This document shows, one piece after another, positions 30,632 through 44,905 of a DNA stretch of 64,000 nucleotides (position 1 is its first letter; every line of letters starts with the position of its first letter). The stretch is taken from positions 77,418 through 141,417 of the forward strand of contig BPIH01000002.1 in the NCBI GenBank assembly GCA_026004015.1. Direction: 5' to 3'. The notes below the pieces were generated by a model. That model was not told where the DNA came from. It made no database searches and saw only the letters and a program-made list of their open reading frames with translations. The stretch is from Chloroflexota bacterium (GTDB lineage: Bacteria > Chloroflexota > Limnocylindria > Limnocylindrales > CSP1-4). The position numbers were made by a program, and so were the translations under genes.

Positions 30632-32014
30632 ATGCCGCGGAACCAGACCATCGATCTCGCTCCGCCCGTCGAGCGAGCCTTCCTCATCGCCGTCGAAACG
30701 GACGACGCCGACGGCTGGACGGCCGAGGATTCCCTGGCCGAGCTGGCGAGCCTCGCCGACACGGCCGGGGCGGTCGTCGTCGGGGCCGAGTGGCAGCGCC
30801 GCCGCCACGTCGATCCGAACTGGTACGTCGGCAAGGGGAAGGCCGAGTCCCTCGTCGCCGCCAAGCACGAAACGGGGTTCACCCTCCTCGTCGCCGACGA
30901 CGAGCTCTCCCCGGCCCAGCAGCGTCGCCTCGAGGGCCTCCTCGGGGTGAAGGTCATCGACCGAAGCCGCCTCATCCTCGACATCTTCGCCCAGCACGCC
31001 CAGACCCACGAGGGCCGCCTCCAGGTCGAGCTCGCCCAGCTCGAGTACCAGCTGCCGCGCCTGACTCGTCTCTGGACCCACCTCTCCCGGACGGGCGGCG
31101 GCATCGGGACCCGGGGACCGGGTGAGACGCAGCTCGAGACGGACCGGCGGGTCATCCGAGAGCGGATCAAGGTCCTGAAGGAACGGGTCGAACAGGTGCG
31201 CCGCCAGCGGGCGACGGCCGCTCGGGGCCGCGATCGGCGCCTCATCCCGGCCATCTCCATCGTCGGCTACACGAACGCCGGCAAGAGCACGCTGCTCAAC
31301 GCCCTCGTCGGGTCCGACGTCGTGCGGGCCGAGGATCGCCTCTTCGCCACCCTCGATCCGACGAGCCGCCTCGTTCGCCTCGGCGAGGGCCAGACGGCGA
31401 TCGTGACCGACACCGTCGGCTTCATCCACAAGCTCCCCCACCAGCTCGTCGATGCCTTCCGGGCGACCCTCGAGGAGGTGACGCGCGCCGACGCCCTCAT
31501 CGAGGTCGTCGACGCCGCCGACCCGCACGCCCCCGAGCATCGGGCCACGGTTCAGGCCGTCCTCGACGAGCTCGGGGCGGGCGACAAGCCGCGGATCGTC
31601 GCCCTGAACAAGATCGACCTCCTCGAACCCGCGGCGACGACGCCCGTCCTCACGGCTCCCGCCGTCGGGATGGCGGTGCCGATCTCGGCCAGGACGGGCT
31701 TCGGGATCGAAACCCTCCGGACGGCGATCTCGGCCCTCCTCGCTGACCTCTGGGTGGCCGTCGACGTCGTGCTCCCGTACCAGGCCGGCGAGCTCCTCGC
31801 CCGGGTTCGGGAACGGGGCACCGTCGGTCTCGACTACCGCCCCGACGGCGTCCGGGTCCGAGGTCGGGTCTCGCCGGCCCTCGCATCCGAGCTCCTGGCG
31901 GCCGCCGACGGACGGCTGGGCGCGGCCCGTCGGGCGGCGCGCCCAGCCGGTGCCGGGGTGGGGGAGGGACGCCAGCCGGAGCCAGCGGTCGGCGGGGAGA
32001 CCCGGCGGGGCTGA
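30632..32014 (+). CDS. hflX: GTPase HflX
   Basis: HflX N-domain, then the G domain (GYTNAGKSTLLN, DTVGF, NKID), all in one 460-aa frame. Confidence 0.9.
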   Translation: MPRNQTIDLAPPVERAFLIAVETDDADGWTAEDSLAELASLADTAGAVVVGAEWQRRRHVDPNWYVGKGKAESLVAAKHETGFTLLVADDELSPAQQRRLEGLLGVKVIDRSRLILDIFAQHAQTHEGRLQVELAQLEYQLPRLTRLWTHLSRTGGGIGTRGPGETQLETDRRVIRERIKVLKERVEQVRRQRATAARGRDRRLIPAISIVGYTNAGKSTLLNALVGSDVVRAEDRLFATLDPTSRLVRLGEGQTAIVTDTVGFIHKLPHQLVDAFRATLEEVTRADALIEVVDAADPHAPEHRATVQAVLDELGAGDKPRIVALNKIDLLEPAATTPVLTAPAVGMAVPISARTGFGIETLRTAISALLADLWVAVDVVLPYQAGELLARVRERGTVGLDYRPDGVRVRGRVSPALASELLAAADGRLGAARRAARPAGAGVGEGRQPEPAVGGETRRG

Positions 32015-32645: not shown

Positions 32646-32772
32646 GGCAGAGGTCCCGGCAAGCGCACGGCTGCGCCGCTCCCACGAACCGACGCCGCTT
32701 CCGGGGCTCCAGGGCGAACGTCACCCGTATCCGCTCGACGGACGAAGAACCGCGGCGGTCTGTTGGAACCTC

Positions 32773-32960
32773 GTGGACAACTCGCGACGCTGGGACGGTC
32801 GAAGTCTGAAAATCGTGGATAACGCCCCTTGTCAGGTGCCGGTCCGTCGCGTACCGTTCGTCTTGCCCGAAGGGGCCCTGGACCGAACGGCACCGGCGAT
32901 GCCTCGCATCACCGGTACCGACCTCGGATCGGCGGTTCCTTCGGGCGTTTTGTCGTCCCG
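32773..32960 (+). repeat. Unit A of a tandem structured element: GTGGACAAC, ATCGTGGATAAC, GCCCGAAGGGGC and GGTTCCTTCGGGCG blocks at fixed spacing, plus an internal hairpin
   Basis: The blocks are exactly identical to unit B, while all spacers have diverged. Confidence 0.7.
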
Positions 32961-33135
32961 CGGGGTCGCTGCGGCCGTCGCTCCCTGCCTGAGCCTCGCG
33001 CGCTCCTGCCGTCGCGCTCGATGGGCGGCGAGTGCCGAAGTGCCCGCCGGCTGATGTGACGTCCCGCGTCGCGGTGCCTCCCCAGGCCGACCAGGCCGAA
33101 GGCGCTCCTGCCGTAGGCGCTCCTGTGGATCGATG

Positions 33136-33320
33136 GTGGACAACGCGGCCTCGGTCGGGCCGGCAACCCTCGAGATCGTGGATAACCCACTTGCGCGGGC
33201 GGCTCGGCCCAGGGTAGCGTTCGAGGTGCCCGAAGGGGCCTCTGACGATGGCGATCCGGCCGGTGCCTGCACCGGTCGTGAGCCAGGACGGACGGTTCCT
33301 TCGGGCGCTTTCGTGTCTGC
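33136..33320 (+). repeat. Unit B of the tandem structured element (same four conserved blocks, spacing within 2 nt of unit A), in the leader of the EamA transporter gene
   Basis: Blocks at 33136, 33174, 33228 and 33294. The internal hairpin CCGGTGC-CT-GCACCGG sits where unit A has ACCGGCGATGC-CTC-GCATCACCGGT. Confidence 0.7.
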
Positions 33321-33686
33321 CGCAACCGGCGTCGCGCGGCTGGTCAGTCCAATCGTTCCCAGCCGGCCCCAAGCCGGTCCTCCGAGTCCGCCGGGCGTGC
33401 CGTCGACGACCGCTGGCCTCGACCGTCGTCGGTCCCGAGGAAGGCTTCAGCTCGGAGCCCTCCGCCGAGCCGGGCTGCTGGGGTGACGCGTCCCGAGGTT
33501 TCAGGTCCTGGTCCCACCCTCTCCGCTACGCCGGAACTGCCGATAAGGGCAGTTATGTCCGTTAGGCCGGCGGCCAGAGGCGCGTCCGAGCGGGCCTCGG
33601 CTCGGCCGCGATACGATCCGGCTCGTCATGCCTCCCCACGACCGCCAGGCGGCACGATCGGGCTGCCCCTCCGCCGGACGCCGACG

Positions 33687-34619
33687 ATGACGCGCCGCGG
33701 GCTCGTCTTGTTCGCGGCGATGTCGGTGATCTGGGGCATCCCGTATCTGCTCATCCGCATCGCCGTCGGGGAGATCTCGCCGGCGACCCTCGTCCTGGCG
33801 CGGACCGCCATCGCGGCGGCCATCCTCCTGCCGATCGCCGTCGCCCGGGTCGACTTCGGCGCCCTTCGCCCGCACTGGCCGTGGATCGTCGCCTTCGCCC
33901 TCGTCGAGATCGCCGGGCCCGTGGGTCCTCCTCGGCTCCGCCGAGCAGCGGATCTCGAGTTCCCTCGCCGGGATCCTCGTCGCCGCCGTGCCGCTCGTCG
34001 GGAGCGGCCATCGCCCTCCTGACAGGAGGGGCCGATCGGCTCGGGCCGACCGGCCTCGCCGGCCTCCTCATCGGGATCGTCGGCGTCGGCGCCATCGTCG
34101 GGGCGGACGTGGGGGCCGAGGACGCCGTGGCGGTCCTCCAGATGGGCGGTGTCGTCCTCGGCTACGCCCTCGGGCCGGCCATCCTCGCCCGCAGGCTCGG
34201 CGGGGTGTCCTCGCTCGGGGTCATGACGGCCTCGCTCGGCCTCTGCGCCCTCCTCTACCTCCCCATCGTGGCCCTCGACCCGCCGGCCGGCCTCCCCTCC
34301 CCGGCTGTCCTCGCCGCCGTCGTGATCCTCGCCGTCGTCTGCACGGCCCTCGCCTTCCTCGTCTTCGCTGCCCTCATCGCCGAGATCGGCCCCGTCCGGG
34401 CCACGGTCATCACCTACGTCAACCCGGCCGTGGCGGCCGTCCTCGGCGTCCTCCTCCTTGGCGAGGACTTCAGCCCCTCGATGGCCCTCGGCTTCGCCCT
34501 CGTCGTCGCCGGTTCGGCCCTCGCCACCCGCGAGCCCGACGGCGTCGACTGCCGAGGCATCGCCGCTCGTCCTCGAGCCGGCCGGCGACGCCGAACCCGG
34601 GAGCGCGGCCTCGCCCTGA
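33687..34619 (+). CDS. EamA/DMT superfamily transporter (apparent frameshifts; 3' end uncertain)
   Basis: Polytopic membrane protein with two EamA-like halves (WGIPYLLIRIAVGE..., TYVNPAVAAVLGVLLLGE). Confidence 0.65.
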
Positions 34620-34912
34620 TCCGCCCCCGTCGCTGGAGGGCCCTCGCTCCGCGCCGCCGGGTCCTGCGCCCTGGCGACCGCTTGGCCCCCGGAGCGACCC
34701 GCGGGCCTCGGGGGCGGATCCACGGCCACGGCGCGGCTGCGCGGCTCGGACGGGGGAAGGCCAGGCGTCACTCATCCCGCGCCGACGGCGGCCAAAGTGT
34801 AGGGGTTCCCCGACTTTCCATGAGGACGCAGCCTGTCTACCGTTGTCGCGAACGGCCGTTCTCGGGCGGCGCTCGAGGGGGCGACAGCTGGGCCGGCGAG
34901 GAGGAACGCGAG

Positions 34913-37506
34913 ATGTGGAAACAGCCCGTGGAAGCGGCCGGGGAGGGTGACGAGCGCGAGCTTCGGCTCGCACCCGAGGCGGAGTCGACCCCACCACGGC
35001 GGGGGCGGAGACGACGGCCACCACGGCGGGGGCCGACACGACCACCGCCGCTGCCGGAACCGAGACGACCAGCGAGCCGGTTCTCGGCGACCCCGAGCGC
35101 CGTGCCTCACCCCAGCCTCGCGACAGCGGGCACCGGCCCGCCCGAGGACCTGCTCCAGCCCGGTGCCGTCGGGCAGACGCCCGACCTCGACCGTGAGGCC
35201 GCCATCGACCCGCGGACCGGGCCGCTCGCCGGCCTCGTCGGTCCGGCAGCCCTCGACGGACGCCCTCGGGGTCGAGATCGACACGGCGACCGACGTCGGG
35301 AAGGCCACCGGCTTCGACACCGGGCTCTCGGTCGACCGGGTCGGCCTCAACCTCGACCCGTTCGCGGAGCGCCGAGGCAGACAGCCGTCGCCGCAGGCCG
35401 CGGCCCGCCACAGCGGCCAACAGGTGTCCGGTGGCGGCGGCGACAGCACGAGCCCGGCCGAAGAGAAGGGCGTCCTCGACACCATCATCGACGTCGCCGC
35501 CGGCGTGCTCATGGCGGTCTTCGACAAGACGCCCGAGCCGCTCTCGACGCTGGCACCGCTGGCGAGCGAGGAGGGCGCGGCCGCCGAGCAAGGGGCGTTC
35601 AACGCTCCTGCAGGAGAAGGACGCGAAGGACTCCAGCCGACCTCGGCACCGAGGAGGGCAACGAGGAGTACTACCGCCTCCGGGCCCAGTCCACGGCGGA
35701 CTTCTACAAGTCGAAGACCCAGGCCAACGAGAGCGAGAACGAGACCGAGACGGACGAGAGCGAGTCGGACGGCGGCACGTCCGCTCCGTCGGGCTCGGGC
35801 GAAGCGCAGCGGCCCGTGAACCCGCGACTGCGGCGACGGCGGGACCTCGCCCGGCAGCCCGGGGGACGTGCTCCTCCAGCGCCCAAGCGTCATCGACCCA
35901 GCCTCCGGACGAGACCGACTCGAGCATCGTCGTCGACCCTCGAGCTGGAATCCCCAAGCTCGAAGCGGCACCGTACGACCCGAACCCGCTGGATGCCTAC
36001 GGGTCGGTCGTCGAGGCGGGGCCGCTTCGCCAGCCGGACCAGGTCTACGACCCAGCCCCGGACAGCGACGCCACGGACATTGCGGGGACGGTCACGGTCA
36101 ACCCCTACTCCGGGGGGCCGGGCATCGTCGGCCCCGGGCCCGCCCCGAGCCCCGGATCGGGCGGCGGGGGGTACGAAACGGCGCAGTCGGCGATGATGAA
36201 GGCTGATCCGGACGACGAACCGCCACCCGAGGCCGGCTCGGTCGCCGGAGGTGGATCGCTCGGCGGCGAGTGGGGCGATCTCGGCGCCGCCGCCTCGTCG
36301 GTGGCATCGGCAGCGGCGGCCGCCGGAGCGGCGGTCGAGAGCGCGGGCGAGTGGGTCGATGACCAGGCGCGCACGGCGGGTGCCGTGGTCAAGAACGCCA
36401 CCAACGTGTTCCTCGATGCCGCCCAGTCCACCGCCTCCAGCGCCGCCCGCGCGGCCGGTGGCGTCCTCTCGAGCGACTGGGCCGACCGGGCGATCGGCGA
36501 CGCACGGGACGCCGTGGAGGGGCGCCGTCGTCGGCGCCGTGGACTCGCTGGTCAATACGGTCGACGACGCGACCGACGTGGTCGAGGCGGGCGGGGTCGG
36601 CGGCCCAGGGGGACTGGGCCGCGGCCGGAGAGAAGGCCCTCGACGCCAGCGGTATCCTGACCGGCGGCTTCGTCGACGTCGAGCAGGATCCCAGCGGGAC
36701 GCACATCTCCATCACCGTCCCGGGCTCCGGCATGACCGGCCCGGCGCCGTCGGTCGGCGGAGGCGGTGAGCTGGAGATTGACGTCGGAGGCGGGAGCGTC
36801 GACGCTCAGCTCACATCGACGACGCCGGTCGGCAGCGGCTCGATCACGACGACGAGCGACGTGGGTCTGACCGGCACCGACGACGGACTGGAGGCAAGCG
36901 TGGCCGTCGAGGCCACGAGCCGTGGTCTGGCGAGCAGCGTTCCTACCAGTCAGGGGAGCGAGGTCCTACCGACCGCCGTCGGGGCGTCGGGCGACATGGC
37001 GCTCGGAGCGACCGGCGTCGACCTCACCGGCAGCGCCTGGAGCGAGAGCGATGGCCTGCTCCTGGGAGGGAGCAGCACGGCATCGGCCGAGGTCCACCTG
37101 GGGGCAGATGGGATCGCCGCTTCCGCCCGTCAGGACACCTCGGGCCATGCCGGATTGGTGTCCTTCTCGGACTCGACCGCAGCTGAGGTGTCCCTCGATG
37201 CCTCTGGCCTCGGCGCGAGCTTCGAGCGGAGCCACGAGCTGGCCGCCCTGGGAATGACCGATGCCTGGAGCACCAGCGCTGAGGTCGAGGTCGGCGCGAG
37301 CGGCGTCGATGTGACAGCGGACGCCGCCTACGTCGACGTCGATCCCGCACTCGGGGCCGTCGGCGTCAGCGTCGGTTCCTCGGGCGATCGGAGTGGAGCA
37401 ACCGCTCGGGCCGGGCCTCGCGGATGCCGAAATCGCGGTCTCCGGCGACGACTCGGGCGGGACCGCGGCCGCGACCACGGACACGGAGTCCGACCCGGTG
37501 CCCTGA
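34913..37506 (+). CDS. Large acidic low-complexity hypothetical protein (about 860 aa after frame correction; Ala/Gly/Ser/Thr/Asp-rich with degenerate C-terminal repeats); local GC lower than flanks
   Basis: ATG with a GGAGGA RBS. Protein-like segments occur in three frames, so the sequence shifts frame. No signal peptide or known domain is recognisable. Ends at the TGA at 37506. Confidence 0.5.
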
Positions 37507-37563
37507 CCGCCGGCAGCCCGGCAACGCCCACGGCGCGCGCCCACCGGCTCCGCGAGACCCGAC

Positions 37564-37883
37564 CTACGGCTGCCGGTAGAAGACGTCGGTCGAGTCCGGC
37601 AAGACGAACCGCAGGGTCATGTCGCCGACCGCAGGGGCGGGAGCGACACGATCATCAGCGTGGGTGGGGCCGCGGTCGTCGGCGGTCCGCTCGCGGGGAC
37701 GATCCGGCTCGGCGCGGACCCGTTGGCGGCGATCGAGGTGCCGGCACACGGCTCGGTATCGTGCTCCGGGCGCCAGCCCTGAGCGCAGGCCGCCAACGAG
37801 ATCGCCACCGCCACCTTCAAGAAGGCGGGACCGGGCGACCGCCTGGCGTGTCCGCATTCCAGGCGCCGTCGGTCCCCATCCAT
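37564..37883 (-). CDS. Small putative lipoprotein/secreted protein (apparent frameshift)
   Basis: Signal-peptide-like FLKVAVAISLAACAQG with an LAAC lipobox. The C-terminal 18 aa are in a shifted frame ending at 37564. Confidence 0.4.
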
Positions 37884-38020
37884 AGGCGGACGCTACGTCA
37901 GCCGATACGGTGGGGCAATTCGGGGGACCTCTACAGTCTGACGTCCCCGATCGCCGTCCCCGAACGGTCTCGCGCCGGTCCGTGGGCGCCGGCTCCGCCG
38001 CGGGGAACAGGATCGAACGC

Positions 38021-39076
38021 CTAGCCAGGGGATCGGCCTCCTGGCGCCGCCGGGGCGGGGACCGGGGCGGCCGCGTCGGCACAGGCGTCGATGGGCAGGC
38101 ATTCAGGGGCGGCCGAGGCGCTCGTCCGGGCCGGCCAGTGGAGGAAGGCGCCGACGTAGACACCGACGAGGACGACGGCGCCGCCGAGGAGGAAGGCGAC
38201 CGAGGGACGCTCGGCGGTGAGGATGGCCGCCGCCACGATCGTCACCATCGGCATGAGGAGGCTCACGTAGGAGACCGCCGAGGCCGTCCACCGGCCGAGG
38301 GTGAAGAGGAAGAGGGCGAACATGACGACGGAGCCGAGCAGGGCGAGGTAGCCGAGGGCGACCCAGGTGTCCGTCTCGACTGGCACCGTCCACCGTTCGG
38401 CACCGAGGGCGGAGCCGACGAGGAGGAGGCCCCCGCCGGCCCCCATGGCGACGACGTTCGTCCCGAAGGGATCGCTCCGGGGGATCCATTTGGCGATGAC
38501 GGAGCTCTCGGCGAGGCAGACCGTAGCGAGGACGGCCAGGAGAAGCCCCACCGCCGGAACGTTCGCACTGAGCTGGTCGGCGGTGACGATGCCGACTCCG
38601 CCGAGGGCGACGAGGGCACCGACGAGGCCCTGGAAGCGGAAGGCCTCCTGGCGGTGGGCGATGGCGAGGCCGAAGGTGAAGAGGGGCGCCAGGGCGATGA
38701 GGAGCATCGCCGTTCCCGCCGGCACCGACTGGAGGGCCGTGTAGAGGAACCCGTAGCCGGCCCCGATGCCGACGGCGCCGTAGAGGGCGGCTCCGCCGAG
38801 GCTCCGGCCCCGGGGCAACGTCCGCCGGCCGTAGGTCACGAGCCCGAGCATGAGGATCGAAGCGGCGATGAAGCGGACGGCGGCCGACCAGAGCGGTTCG
38901 AGCTCACCGACGGTCGCCTTCACCGCGATCCCGTTCAGCCCCCCGATGAGGACGACGCCGCCGAAGCTGGCGAGGGTGAGCCGGTCGACGCCGGCGAGCT
39001 GGACCACGATGCACCTCCCTCCCCTCTCCCCGGGGCGCGGTCGCCGAAGCATGCCACGGGTCGTCCCTGAAGGCAA
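38021..39076 (-). CDS. EamA/DMT superfamily transporter
   Basis: A 351-aa ORF with about 10 TM segments in two EamA halves. The real start is probably internal, near 39050. Confidence 0.75.
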   Translation of the reverse strand: MPSGTTRGMLRRPRPGERGGRCIVVQLAGVDRLTLASFGGVVLIGGLNGIAVKATVGELEPLWSAAVRFIAASILMLGLVTYGRRTLPRGRSLGGAALYGAVGIGAGYGFLYTALQSVPAGTAMLLIALAPLFTFGLAIAHRQEAFRFQGLVGALVALGGVGIVTADQLSANVPAVGLLLAVLATVCLAESSVIAKWIPRSDPFGTNVVAMGAGGGLLLVGSALGAERWTVPVETDTWVALGYLALLGSVVMFALFLFTLGRWTASAVSYVSLLMPMVTIVAAAILTAERPSVAFLLGGAVVLVGVYVGAFLHWPARTSASAAPECLPIDACADAAAPVPAPAAPGGRSPG

Positions 39077-42717: not shown

Positions 42718-44336
42718 TCAGCGAGCGGGTCGGCTCGACTCCCTCTCCGACGACGGGCGTCCGCCGAGGGCCGCCAGGAGGAGCCGCCCGATCCGGTAGC
42801 TCCGCCCGCCGCCCATGACGAGGACGACGTCTCCCGGCCGGACCCGCTCCGCCAGCCAGGCCGCCGTCGCCTCGACCGAGCCCGGCGCCCCGACGGTGCG
42901 GGCCGGGGCGACGGCCGCCACTCGCGCCGCCAGGCCGGCGGCCGAGGCGATGGTCCGGTCGGGGTCACGCCCGGGCCAGATGTCGGCCACGGCCACGGCG
43001 TCGGCTTCGGCCAGGACGGCGGCGAAGGCGTCGAGCATGGCCGCCGTCCGGTGGTACGTGAGGGGCTCGTAGACGGCCCAGACCGGCCGGCCCGGTTCGA
43101 GCTGGCGGACGGCGGCGAGGGTCGCCCGGATCGCCGTCGGGTGGTGGGCGTAGTCGTCGTAGACGGTGACGCCGGCGGCCTCGCCGAGCCGCTCGAGGCG
43201 GCGGCCGACGCCCTCGAAGGTCTCGAGGCTGGCCGCCGTGGATGCCCACGGCAGGCCGAGGACGGCACCGGCGGCGGCGACGAGGAGGCCGTTGGCGGCG
43301 TTGTGGCGGCCGACGAGACCGACCCGGAGCCGACGGGCCGGCCCGGGCTCGCCTGAGCCCCGACGCCGCCGACGAGGAGCTCCGTCCCGGCCGCCGAGGC
43401 CGACGTGACGACCCCAATGACCGCCGTCGCGGCGCCGAGGGCGGTCCCGTACCGGGCTGCGAGGGCCCGTTGCCGCGCGGCGAGGCCGGCCGCTTCGGCG
43501 GCGACCCCCGGTCCCCCGAGCTCGACGACGACGAGCCGGCCGGACCAGTCCCCGGAGCCGATCGGCGAGCTCGGCACCGCCCGGGTCGGCCACGTCGACG
43601 ACGGCCGTCGCCTGCCTCCCCTCCCCTGCCCGCCGGAGCCAGGCCTCGATGGCCTCGACGGCGGCGGTCCGGTCGGCGAAGACGTCGGGGTGGTCCCACT
43701 CGACGTTGGTGACGACGGCGACGTCGGGCAGGAAGGGATCGAAGTTACCGGCGTACTCGTCGGCCTCGACGACGGCGACCGGGCCGCGTCCCGTCCGCGC
43801 CGTGCTCGGGGGACCACCGAGGAGCCGCGCCGGGAGGAGGGCGCCGACGAAGGCGAGGGGATCGAGGGCAGCCCGAACGAGGAGATCGACGAGCCAGCCG
43901 GCGGTCGTGCTCTTGCCGTGGGTTCCGGTCACGGCGACGAGGGTCCGGCCGACGGCGGCGTCGGCGACGACCTGCTGCCACGGCTCGAGGGGGATCCCGC
44001 GGCCCGGGCGGCGGCGAGCTCGGGATGATCGGGCTCGACCGAGGTGAGGGCCTTCGTCACCGCGAGCCGAGTCGGGCGTGGGGCGGCGGTCACGTGGGCC
44101 GCGTCGTGGCCGACGGCGAGGGGGATGCCGACCGAGGCGAAGGGCTCGGTGTAGGGCGAAGCACCGCCGCGGTCGCAGCCCGTCACCTGCGCCCCGGCGG
44201 CGGCGGCGAGGAGGGCGGCGGCGCTCGCCCCGGCCCCCGCCGCGCCGACGACGTGGATGCATTCGCCCGGCTCGATGGGGCGCGGCCGGCGGGCCGGCGC
44301 CAGGCCGGCGGAGATGTCGGCGGGCGAGCGGAGCAT
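42718..44336 (-). CDS. murC: UDP-N-acetylmuramate--L-alanine ligase MurC (apparent frameshifts)
   Basis: Mur ligase motifs ([46 protein letters not shown]). Confidence 0.78.
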
Positions 44337-44349
44337 GCGGACGGAGGCG

Positions 44350-44905
44350 TCAGCCGCCGGTCGAGCCCGTGGCTCCGGCGCCTCCGGCGTCCCGGCCGGC
44401 AGCCGCGCGAGCGGCGGCGAGGGTCTCGGCCCGTTCGAGGAGCAGCTCGAGGGCGAGCTCCGCCGACGCCCGCTTGTTCTCGTGCCGGTTCCCCGTCCAG
44501 ACGACCCGCCGGACGACGGCCTCGCGTCCGTCGGCGACGGCGACGTACGTCAGCCCGACGGGCTTGGCCGGCGTCCCGCCCTCGGGACCGGCGATCCCGG
44601 TCACGGCGCAGGCGAGGTCGACCCCGAAGCGGCTCCGGAGTCCCGACCGCCATCGCCCGGGCGACCTGGGCGCTCACCGCGCCGTGGGCCTCGATGAGGG
44701 CCGGGTCGACCCCGCAGAGGGCGACCTTCGCCTCGTTGGCGTAGGCGACGACGCCGCCCCGGAAGTAGCCGGACGAACCCGGCACCTCGGTCAGGAGGTG
44801 GGCGACGAGGCCGCCGGTGGAGGATTCGGCCGTCGCGATCCGGAGACCGGCGGCGAGGCAGACGGCCTGGAGGGCGGCGGCTCGGGCGACGAGGGGGTCG
44901 TCCAT
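44350..44905 (-). CDS. CinA C-terminal domain protein / nicotinamide-nucleotide amidohydrolase PncC-like (apparent frameshift)
   Basis: [37 protein letters not shown] plus the C-terminal [10 protein letters not shown]...GLTYVAV. Confidence 0.72.

Follow-up and report, generated by a model that had tools for sequence, protein, structure and literature searches.

A frameshift-interrupted gene for a rare acidic modular protein in a Limnocylindria genome, and the small helical module it shares with an RHS-core protein and polytopic membrane proteins

S-layer proteins, adhesins and the curli protein CsgA, with its strand-turn-strand units, are acidic or repeat-type proteins of the bacterial surface. 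Polymorphic toxin systems join one C-terminal domain to a variety of N-terminal regions, and pore-forming colicins have their immunity genes on the opposite strand (PMC4436062). RHS (rearrangement hotspot) proteins autocleave after the motif DPxGL, and what lies downstream of the cut is the encapsulated toxin (10.1101/2024.02.26.582050). The gene described here lies at positions 34913-37506 of a 64,000-nt stretch of contig BPIH01000002.1, the whole of which is called the window, from an uncultivated soil/freshwater Chloroflexota of the class Limnocylindria. It is one genuine protein-coding gene under purifying selection. Its reading frame is broken at about 12 places, and one small helical module of its acidic product recurs in proteins of both RHS and membrane type.

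The window has a GC (guanine plus cytosine) content of 73.9%. Since this leaves every frame with long open stretches, a list of open reading frames (ORFs) says little by itself. No single ORF of that list crosses 34913-37506, and the raw DNA offers overlapping ORFs in all six frames. The gene is recognised through a protein of 854 residues (P0001), the sole full-length homolog found when the stitched translation was compared with 5.8 billion proteins. This ortholog is encoded, intact and free of frameshifts, on contigs FWPU01001095.1 (GCA_900174565.1) and FWWM01009493.1 (GCA_900175145.1) of two metagenome assemblies. A frameshift-aware protein-to-DNA alignment covers the whole gene, beginning at the ATG at 34913 and ending with the last codon ahead of the TGA. 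It needs 10 frame changes and pairs 837 residues, of which 584 are identical (70%), Met1 to stop. After frame correction, there is no in-frame stop over ~860 codons. At the nucleotide level, identity to the ortholog locus (L001) is 77% over 35146-37506, and the context of ribosome-binding site and start codon, AGGAGGA...AGATG, is kept in the DNA alignment. For the two copies, the ratio of nonsynonymous to synonymous substitution rates (dN/dS) comes to 0.32 over the gene as a whole; the conserved blocks have 0.24-0.32 and the acidic N-terminus 0.61. Because the intact ortholog aligns end to end, the ribosome-binding site and start are kept and dN/dS is 0.32, the gene is accepted as real, but only after about 12 corrections.

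A sequence-only reading of this DNA had proposed a single 2.6-kb gene with a GGAGGA ribosome-binding site and an ATG, stitched together from peptides in need of frame correction. One long gene was indeed recovered by way of the ortholog, with the proposed ribosome-binding site and start, and it is not a common housekeeping protein. All of the quoted peptides are present, but they lie in three frames rather than in one ORF. The peptides MWKQPVEAAGE... and EEYYRLRAQ... sit in the frame of ORF 33881-36196, GAVVKNATNV... in ORF 35431-36660, and the DVGLTGTDDGLEASVAV-type repeats in ORF 36732-38024. The opposite reading, that the region holds no real gene but unrelated short ORFs or chance open frames of high-GC DNA, could be drawn from the raw sequence, as it gives only overlapping ORFs and long spurious ORFs are common at 74% GC. 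It is refuted by the colinear protein alignment from start codon to stop codon, the DNA alignment and the dN/dS value, and the kept start region speaks against it too. The GC content at third codon positions (GC3) also follows the inferred path through each frame change, and this reading is considered exceedingly improbable.

The family is very rare, with two known lineages among billions of proteins, and a scan of a genome collection for the gene returned no relatives. The ortholog has the same domain order, the same ribosome-binding site and start context and a convergent small 3′ gene. It is without the Thr/Ala-rich N-terminal insertion of the window copy, and its acidic Ser/Thr linker is longer. 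Its neighbours are unlike those of the window: two conserved small 5′ genes, an extra 193-residue gene, and then feoB and tig-clpP-clpX.

The frame breaks can be followed in several ways. In a GC3 frame plot, the phase of high third-position GC jumps repeatedly within 34913-37506, and the coding path is traceable by eye in a three-frame layout. A Viterbi model of codon usage, with long clean window genes as its training set, gave 10 genuine frame changes and one terminal artefact at penalties of 8-12, with nine of the ten being +1. The breaks total about 12, and 10 of these advance the frame by +1. Eight of the ten are clean one-base insertions with codon-aligned conserved surroundings in the DNA alignment, listed as such in Table 1; a two-base surplus and an 11-nt deficit are the other defects relative to L001. 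Coding segments 3-12 were placed by the frameshift-aware protein alignment and the DNA alignment to L001. The shifts at ~34970 (-1) and ~35107 (+1) bracket the Thr/Ala-rich insertion. Since the ortholog has no counterpart of it to align to, only the codon model and GC3 place these two shifts. Within it (segment 2), GC3 is 0.90 in the chosen frame vs 0.68 and 0.75 in the other two. Tandem Repeats Finder (TRF) detects here a 27-nt unit in 2.5 copies at 34978-35043 (82% matches), which codes for Thr/Ala-rich TTAGAETTATTAGADTTT. As this repeat is missing from the ortholog, the N-terminal low-complexity region varies in length.

Comparable breaks occur in other genes of the window. Frame-corrected translations were built at suspicious sites elsewhere and scanned against Pfam. 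Single Pfam domains were found to span the shifts in HisD (histidinol dehydrogenase), the class I/II aminotransferase HisC beside it, MurC (both Mur ligase domains), the PBP1A transglycosylase, Pirin_C, TPP_enzyme_M and CinA. A further shift falls in the C-terminal region of an EF-G-like gene. The shifts of these other genes are +1 in 11 of 12 cases, vs 10 of 12 in the gene itself, and the adjoining genes on both strands (EamA and the small convergent gene) are shifted as well. Altogether, 20 of the 25 inferred intragenic shifts lie within 33.9-44.6 kb and none past 45 kb. Errors are favoured as the cause because the same +1 signature breaks housekeeping genes, which cannot all be pseudogenes. 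Insertion-type errors fit, since the shifts cluster in this interval and hit neighbours on both strands. The indels are thus most likely consensus errors in a low-quality patch of the assembly, a reading that can be held with good confidence, and the organism probably makes the full-length protein. A further sign of low quality is seen in a Mur ligase gene at 42733-44351 on the minus strand, which lies in at least three pieces (42733-43317, and 43362-44351 with shifts at 43551 and 43997).

The frameshifts could instead be real mutations, by which an accessory gene in a variable region was inactivated in this strain. Such a pseudogene would account for the uneven spread of the shifts, 12 within the 2.6 kb of the gene and ~13 across the remaining 61 kb. 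The gene also lies past a break of synteny at ~32.67 kb and is missing beside hflX in related genomes. Its family, being very rare, is dispensable for the class as a whole. The same +1 insertions are, however, present in hisD, hisC, murC and the PBP1A gene, and unrelated neighbours on both strands are hit. Natural indel spectra of bacteria are generally deletion-biased, whereas the indels here are strongly insertion-biased. The corrected gene has no in-frame stop, its GC3 is still 0.87 and its dN/dS is 0.32. A pseudogene is viewed as unlikely. Programmed frameshifting was also considered and is untenable: the shifts, at least 10 of them, share no slippery motif, and housekeeping genes are broken in the same way. 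Frames in the window, especially in 33.9-44.6 kb, need correcting before any ORF-based interpretation.

The corrected product has ~860 residues (~84 kDa) and is, as the sequence-only reading had stated, acidic and rich in Ala, Gly, Ser, Thr and Asp (A 15.4%, G 13.9%, S 9.6%, D 9.1%; 136 acidic vs 44 basic residues); it is also rich in Val. The ortholog has 147 Asp and Glu vs 35 Lys and Arg, and no Cys. Along the ortholog, an acidic and poorly conserved N-terminus is followed by a conserved block with GFDxGLSVDRVGLNLDP and by the helical module. Next come an acidic Ser/Thr linker of variable length, Pro-rich motifs (AAPYDPNPLD, QVYDPAPD) and a Gly-rich linker. An Ala-rich helical hairpin, seven beta-rich repeats of ~32 residues and an acidic tail complete the protein. 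Degenerate C-terminal repeats had been predicted from the sequence, and their period is seen as an autocorrelation peak at lag 32 (z 4.9 and 5.3), with a harmonic at 64, in both orthologs; no DNA-level tandem repeat underlies them in TRF.

In an AlphaFold2 (AF2) model of P0001, the N-terminal half is largely of low confidence. The best-predicted part, and the sole one of moderate confidence, is the hairpin, with helices at residues 444-506 and 509-572 of the ortholog and a predicted local distance difference test (pLDDT) score of 55-73. Its sequence shows autocorrelation at lags 4/7/11. For the beta-rich repeats, which the sequence-only reading had wished to see checked for a beta-solenoid or beta-roll, the model gives short strands only, with pLDDT below 50 and no fold match. 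Foldseek matches of the hairpin to the antifreeze protein Maxi, chemoreceptors and ESCRT-III/Vipp1 were set aside as generic, all having E >= 0.3.

Neither a signal peptide nor a segment of transmembrane grade is present in either ortholog (maximum 19-residue Kyte-Doolittle mean of 1.4-1.7), and a motif scan found no twin-arginine motif in either. Both orthologs begin with an acidic, non-hydrophobic N-terminus, and so does the L001 ORF in its longest 5′ extension. The stitched protein and P0001 have no match in Pfam or NCBIfam at E <= 1, PHROGs and PADLOC returned nothing relevant, and a PDB sequence search gave nothing at E <= 1. This agrees with the initial view that the protein has no Sec signal peptide and no recognisable enzymatic domain.

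The sole part of the protein with relatives beyond the ortholog is the helical module. A HMMER search of P0001 against 1.84 billion representative proteins gave four weak matches only (P0002-P0005; E = 3e-6 to 2e-4), all of which fall on ortholog residues 171-258, the module spanning ~160-252 in the architecture. The module alignment has 12 invariant columns, including T-P, L-x-S-x-E-G-A, G, A, G and Y-x-R. A profile search with this alignment recovered P0005 and P0006, adding only two small proteins. The module is predicted by AF2 to be all-helical. Pfam gave nothing on the module sequences at E <= 10. The module region of P0002 had a weak PA2779-family match (E = 0.028), which was dropped since just one of six module sequences showed it again.

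The carriers differ widely in their remaining sequence. In P0003, the model TIGR03696 (Rhs_assc_core) matches with E = 1e-16, above the curated cutoff and through its last position, and the module stands directly after DPSGL. As RHS proteins cleave after DPxGL and carry the toxin downstream, the module of P0003 is in the payload position. P0002, P0004 and the product of L006 3339-4865 are polytopic membrane proteins with the module at their C-terminal end, tethered to the last transmembrane helix, while P0005 and P0006 are small stand-alone module proteins. The polytopic proteins share with the Limnocylindria protein the module and its signature FDKTP...PLASEEGA...EY-x-R. They have 8-10 transmembrane segments and are without the acidic linker, hairpin and beta repeats, whereas the Limnocylindria protein has no transmembrane segment. 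A positive-inside estimate for them gave inconsistent segment counts of 8, 9 and 10. Judged by these sequences, the small helical module is a candidate new module, not described before, that appears to join three otherwise unrelated architectures.

Each polytopic module protein adjoins, in either orientation, a homolog (~50% identity) of one membrane protein of ~212-258 residues, and the two together are a conserved two-gene unit. The loci L001 and L006 are syntenic. They have two 5′ genes in common at 54-56% identity, and tig-clpP-clpX lies 3′ in both. The slot between these genes holds the 854-residue protein in L001 and a polytopic module protein in L006. The small 5′ gene pair (L001 5942-6930; L006 931-2315) encodes a membrane protein ending in ...TKETIEW[LV]R... 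and a protein of ~171-197 residues, with no Pfam or NCBIfam assignment. The window is without these partner genes, that of the polytopic proteins included.

These relationships raise the possibility of an effector of polymorphic-toxin type, in which the module would be the toxin or pre-toxin payload, the acidic protein a new non-Sec delivery scaffold, and the lipoprotein-like gene a source of protection. The module of the Limnocylindria protein is homologous to the sequence found exactly at the payload position of P0003. Like the C-terminal domains of RHS toxins, it occurs on several unrelated N-terminal regions. In P0002, it precedes a weak Hint_2 match, the slot of L001 and L006 acts like a variable cassette site, and the convergent neighbour recalls the opposite-strand immunity genes of pore-forming colicins. 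On the other side, the toxin of RHS proteins is C-terminal, whereas here the module is internal, with ~600 conserved residues on its C-terminal side. The surroundings yielded neither a trafficking domain nor RHS/YD repeats nor secretion-system genes; the protein itself has no RHS/YD repeat or core match in Pfam or NCBIfam, the core being present only in the carrier P0003. The Hint_2 match is under the Pfam threshold (19.3 vs 28.4 bits). RHS toxins have a tandem same-strand immunity gene, while the 3′ gene here is convergent, both 3′ genes of L001 are on the minus strand, and conservation of the small neighbour is confined to its last ~30 residues. There were no PADLOC or PHROG matches. From its sequence, no toxic activity or catalytic motif is evident for the module, and apart from T-P, S-x-E-G-A and Y-x-R none of its conserved residues looks catalytic. 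This effector reading is considered quite unlikely. A more specific form of it is given similarly little weight: the module (FDKTP-x3-S-x-L-x-PLASEEGA...EY-x-R-[IL]) would be an undescribed payload or pre-toxin domain, delivered by an RHS cage, by Hint-bearing polytopic proteins and by the acidic signal-less scaffold of Limnocylindria, and the slot 5′ of tig-clpP-clpX would be a site of effector cassette exchange.

A second possibility is an S-layer protein, an adhesin or another structural protein of the surface, with the beta-rich repeats as an exposed array. This was among the roles suggested from the sequence, and the likeness is one of composition: an acidic protein rich in Ala, Gly, Ser, Thr, Asp and Val, an ortholog without Cys, Ser/Thr/Pro-rich linkers and seven imperfect, strand-rich repeats. 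Like those of S-layer proteins, adhesins and CsgA, these repeats are rich in Gly, Ser, Ala, Thr and Asp and a few tens of residues long. A conserved lipoprotein-like gene adjoins. Yet a signal peptide, a twin-arginine motif and a hydrophobic N-terminus are all missing from both orthologs, even in the longest extension of the L001 ORF, and the empty Pfam and NCBIfam scans at E <= 1 leave the protein without an SLH, LPXTG sortase-type or cell-wall-binding domain. Accessory export genes are also lacking, as is any sequence or confident structural similarity to the known surface proteins. Two known lineages are unlike what would be expected of a major envelope component of the class. The surface role suggested by the sequence-only reading thus found no support in a signal peptide, anchoring domain or Pfam match, and is judged very unlikely.

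With type VII substrates (WXG100/LXG), the protein shares a long helical hairpin and the absence of a Sec signal. Its hairpin has ~130 residues and is embedded in an 860-residue protein, and there is no WXG100/LXG family match. The WxG and YxxxD/E motifs proposed for the type VII secretion system (T7SS) are not kept in the orthologs as such: P0001 has a single WxG, at residue 299, that is not conserved, and the one conserved Y-x-x-x-D falls in the beta-repeat region. No T7SS ATPase was recognised among the window genes looked at.

With low confidence, the protein is best seen as a non-enzymatic scaffold or effector-type protein that would act at or beyond the cell envelope. The shared module would be the interaction or payload part of this scaffold, a role proposed because the module also follows the RHS-core DPSGL and ends polytopic membrane proteins. 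The beta repeats would form an extended structural or binding surface, and the protein, if exported, would need a non-Sec route. A secreted effector with such a route had also been suggested from the sequence, and the payload position of the module in P0003 is one indirect clue in its favour. As a whole, the explanation by a real gene, assembly errors, a modular protein and a tentative envelope or effector role is considered probable, with considerable room for doubt.

Several points weigh against this explanation. The density of shifts in the gene is ~20x that of the rest of the window (12 observed, 0.55 expected; Poisson P ~1e-12), and such dense shifts would also suit a truly decaying accessory gene. 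The stop-free frame is only weak evidence against decay, with 0.8-6.5 in-frame stops expected under decay and 0 observed (P = 0.004-0.25, depending on the substitutions per indel assumed). Metagenome scans with degenerate peptide patterns and an exact 38-mer found only the two known contigs, and neither these nor the genome-collection scan yielded a cleaner or second copy of this strain. Scans for signal peptides, hydrophobicity, twin-arginine and T7SS motifs gave no secretion signal of any kind. The module is internal (~171-258 of 854 in the ortholog) rather than C-terminal, and the neighbouring small gene is convergent and not a tandem immunity gene. The link to RHS proteins is one 193-residue protein, P0003, from a 1-kb contig, and the whole module family has about eight known carriers. 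The structural models are also of limited confidence: the AF2 model of P0001 alone has a mean pLDDT of 41.6 and gave nothing in Foldseek at E <= 0.001, and that of the module (P0005, four alignment rows) has a pLDDT of 55.5 and no fold match at E <= 0.001.

The gene sits in a variable segment just past a break of synteny. HflX (30698-31804) is 76-82% identical in amino acid sequence to that of Candidatus Limnocylindria and Limnocylindrales metagenome-assembled genomes (L007-L023), which places the window in the Chloroflexota; an actinomycete origin is rejected on these grounds. Gene order is common with these genomes from ~22.0 kb to ~32.67 kb, with flanking DNA 65-87% identical, and then breaks. 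In all of these relatives, the gene and the next several genes of the window are missing within 10 kb of hflX. As the relatives are this distant, the comparison establishes a variable location and not a transfer. The window is core chromosome: on the 5′ side of the gene lie RNase Y, YmdB-like, MiaB, MiaA and HflX, and on the 3′ side are genes taken to encode pirin, a TPP enzyme, MurC, CinA, a RodZ-like protein and FtsK. Some of these names were read off the translations and others come from Pfam.

Horizontal acquisition had been proposed from an atypical composition and a stretch of lower GC, and neither argument held. The GC content of the gene is 0.733 vs 0.739 for the window, and its GC3 of 0.87 is only mildly low vs 0.92-1.0 in high-GC3 stretches of other window genes. 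The stretch in question, EEYYRLR...ESESDGG, has a host-typical GC3 of 0.95, its lower GC arising from Lys, Asn, Glu and Tyr codons, and it overlaps in part with the protein's most conserved module. Composition thus gives no evidence for horizontal acquisition, and only the position of the gene hints at an accessory status. No tRNA is present in 28-48 kb, and searches of plasmids and phages returned no relative; the search for integrase and transposase genes was not exhaustive.

The flanking genes are those named initially, with EamA 5′ and the small convergent lipoprotein-like gene 3′. The latter is the only neighbour kept at the ortholog locus, by an 87-nt match of 84% identity at L001 10613-10699. 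Only its last ~30 residues (VAPxPAVGDMTLxFxLPDxxDVFYxQ) are kept, with the L001 gene 10616-11074 on the minus strand. Scans for promoters and terminators were uninformative, and a tblastx comparison of the window with L001, swamped by compositional noise of high-GC DNA, yielded no synteny that could be used. The tandem structured element named initially (~32700-33500) occupies the interval from the last syntenic gene to EamA and has two diverged ~100-nt copies at 32851-32951 and 33214-33311, ~360 nt apart, with 76-85% identity over cores of 27-42 nt. Rfam gave no match at E <= 0.1 to this element or elsewhere in 31.5-38.5 kb.

Table 1. Coordinates of the gene, its coding segments and protein regions, and of related features. 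Positions are those of the window unless a locus is named.
Feature	Position	Strand	Details
Ribosome-binding site GGAGGA	34900..34905	+	7 nt 5′ of ATG 34913; read from sequence
Whole gene	34913..37506	+	ATG 34913 to TGA 37504-37506; ~860 codons once frame corrected; not an intact ORF
Coding segment 1	34913..34969	+	Codon starts at positions congruent to 2 mod 3; MWKQPVEAAGEGDERELRL...
Coding segment 2	34972..35106	+	Frame 1; Thr/Ala-rich VDPTTAGAETTATTAGADTTT...; from Viterbi, TRF and alignment gap in L001
Coding segment 3	35108..35254	+	Frame 2; ...PEDLLQPGAVGQTPDLDREAAIDPRTGPLAGL; frame change ~35255, window 11 nt short vs L001
Coding segment 4	35256..35369	+	Frame 0; TDALGVEIDTATDVGKATGFDTGLSVDRVGLNLDPFAE; one-base insertion ~35370
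Coding segment 5	35371..35385	+	Frame 1, 5 codons; then two-base surplus (equivalent to -1) ~35386
Coding segment 6	35388..35603	+	Frame 0; first half of shared module; one-base insertion (G) ~35604
Coding segment 7	35605..35637	+	Frame 1; LLQEKDAKDSS; one-base insertion (C) ~35638
Coding segment 8	35639..35824	+	Frame 2; DLGTEEGNEEYYRLRAQSTADFYKSKTQ and acidic linker; one-base insertion (C) ~35825
Coding segment 9	35826..35900	+	Frame 0; DCGDGGTSPGSPGDVLLQRPSVIDP; one-base insertion (A) ~35901
Coding segment 10	35902..36519	+	Frame 1; Pro-rich conserved motifs, Gly-rich linker, first helix of hairpin; one-base insertion ~36520
Coding segment 11	36521..36589	+	Frame 2; GAVVGAVDSLVNTVDDATDVVEA; one-base insertion (G) ~36590
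Coding segment 12	36591..37385	+	Frame 0; end of hairpin and beta-rich repeats; one-base insertion (G) ~37386
Coding segment 13	37387..37506	+	Frame 1; IGVEQPLGPGLADAEIAV..., acidic tail, stop codon
Shared helical module	35433..35722	+	~75-95 residues; GVLDTIIDV...FDKTPEPLSTLAPLASEEGAAAEQGAFNLLQEKDAKD...EEYYRLRAQSTADFYKSKTQ
Ala-rich antiparallel helical hairpin	36268..36659	+	~130 residues; four Trp motifs EWGDL, EWVDD, DWADR, DWAAA
Seven degenerate ~32-residue beta-rich repeats	36768..37440	+	Core S-T-A-S-A-E-V-x-L-G-A-x-G-[IVL]-x-[AV]-S
Convergent small lipoprotein-like gene	37564..37883	-	Lipobox L-A-A-C; ...FLKVAVAISLAAC...; own frameshift ~37682
Shift site, PBP1A	~4452
Shift site, HisC	~10067
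Shift site, HisD	~11411
Shift site, EF-G-like	~14560
Shift sites, EamA	33915, 34006
Shift site, pirin	39454
Shift sites, TPP enzyme	41343, 41599
Shift sites, MurC	43551, 43997
Shift site, CinA	44641
Membrane partner gene	L003 6631-7296
Membrane partner gene	L004 7253-7918
Membrane partner gene	L005 256-921
Membrane partner gene	L088 1195-1899
Membrane partner gene	L089 453-1091
Membrane partner gene	L006 2570-3346

The locus adds a new rare family, a large acidic modular protein of two lineages, together with a small new helical module. Should the module prove to be neither a toxin nor a targeting domain, the protein would be one more lineage-specific and partly disordered orphan, which is a common kind. 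If it does prove to be a toxin or targeting domain, it would be a new element for the biology of polymorphic toxins and would provide the first functional handle on the uncultivated Limnocylindria.

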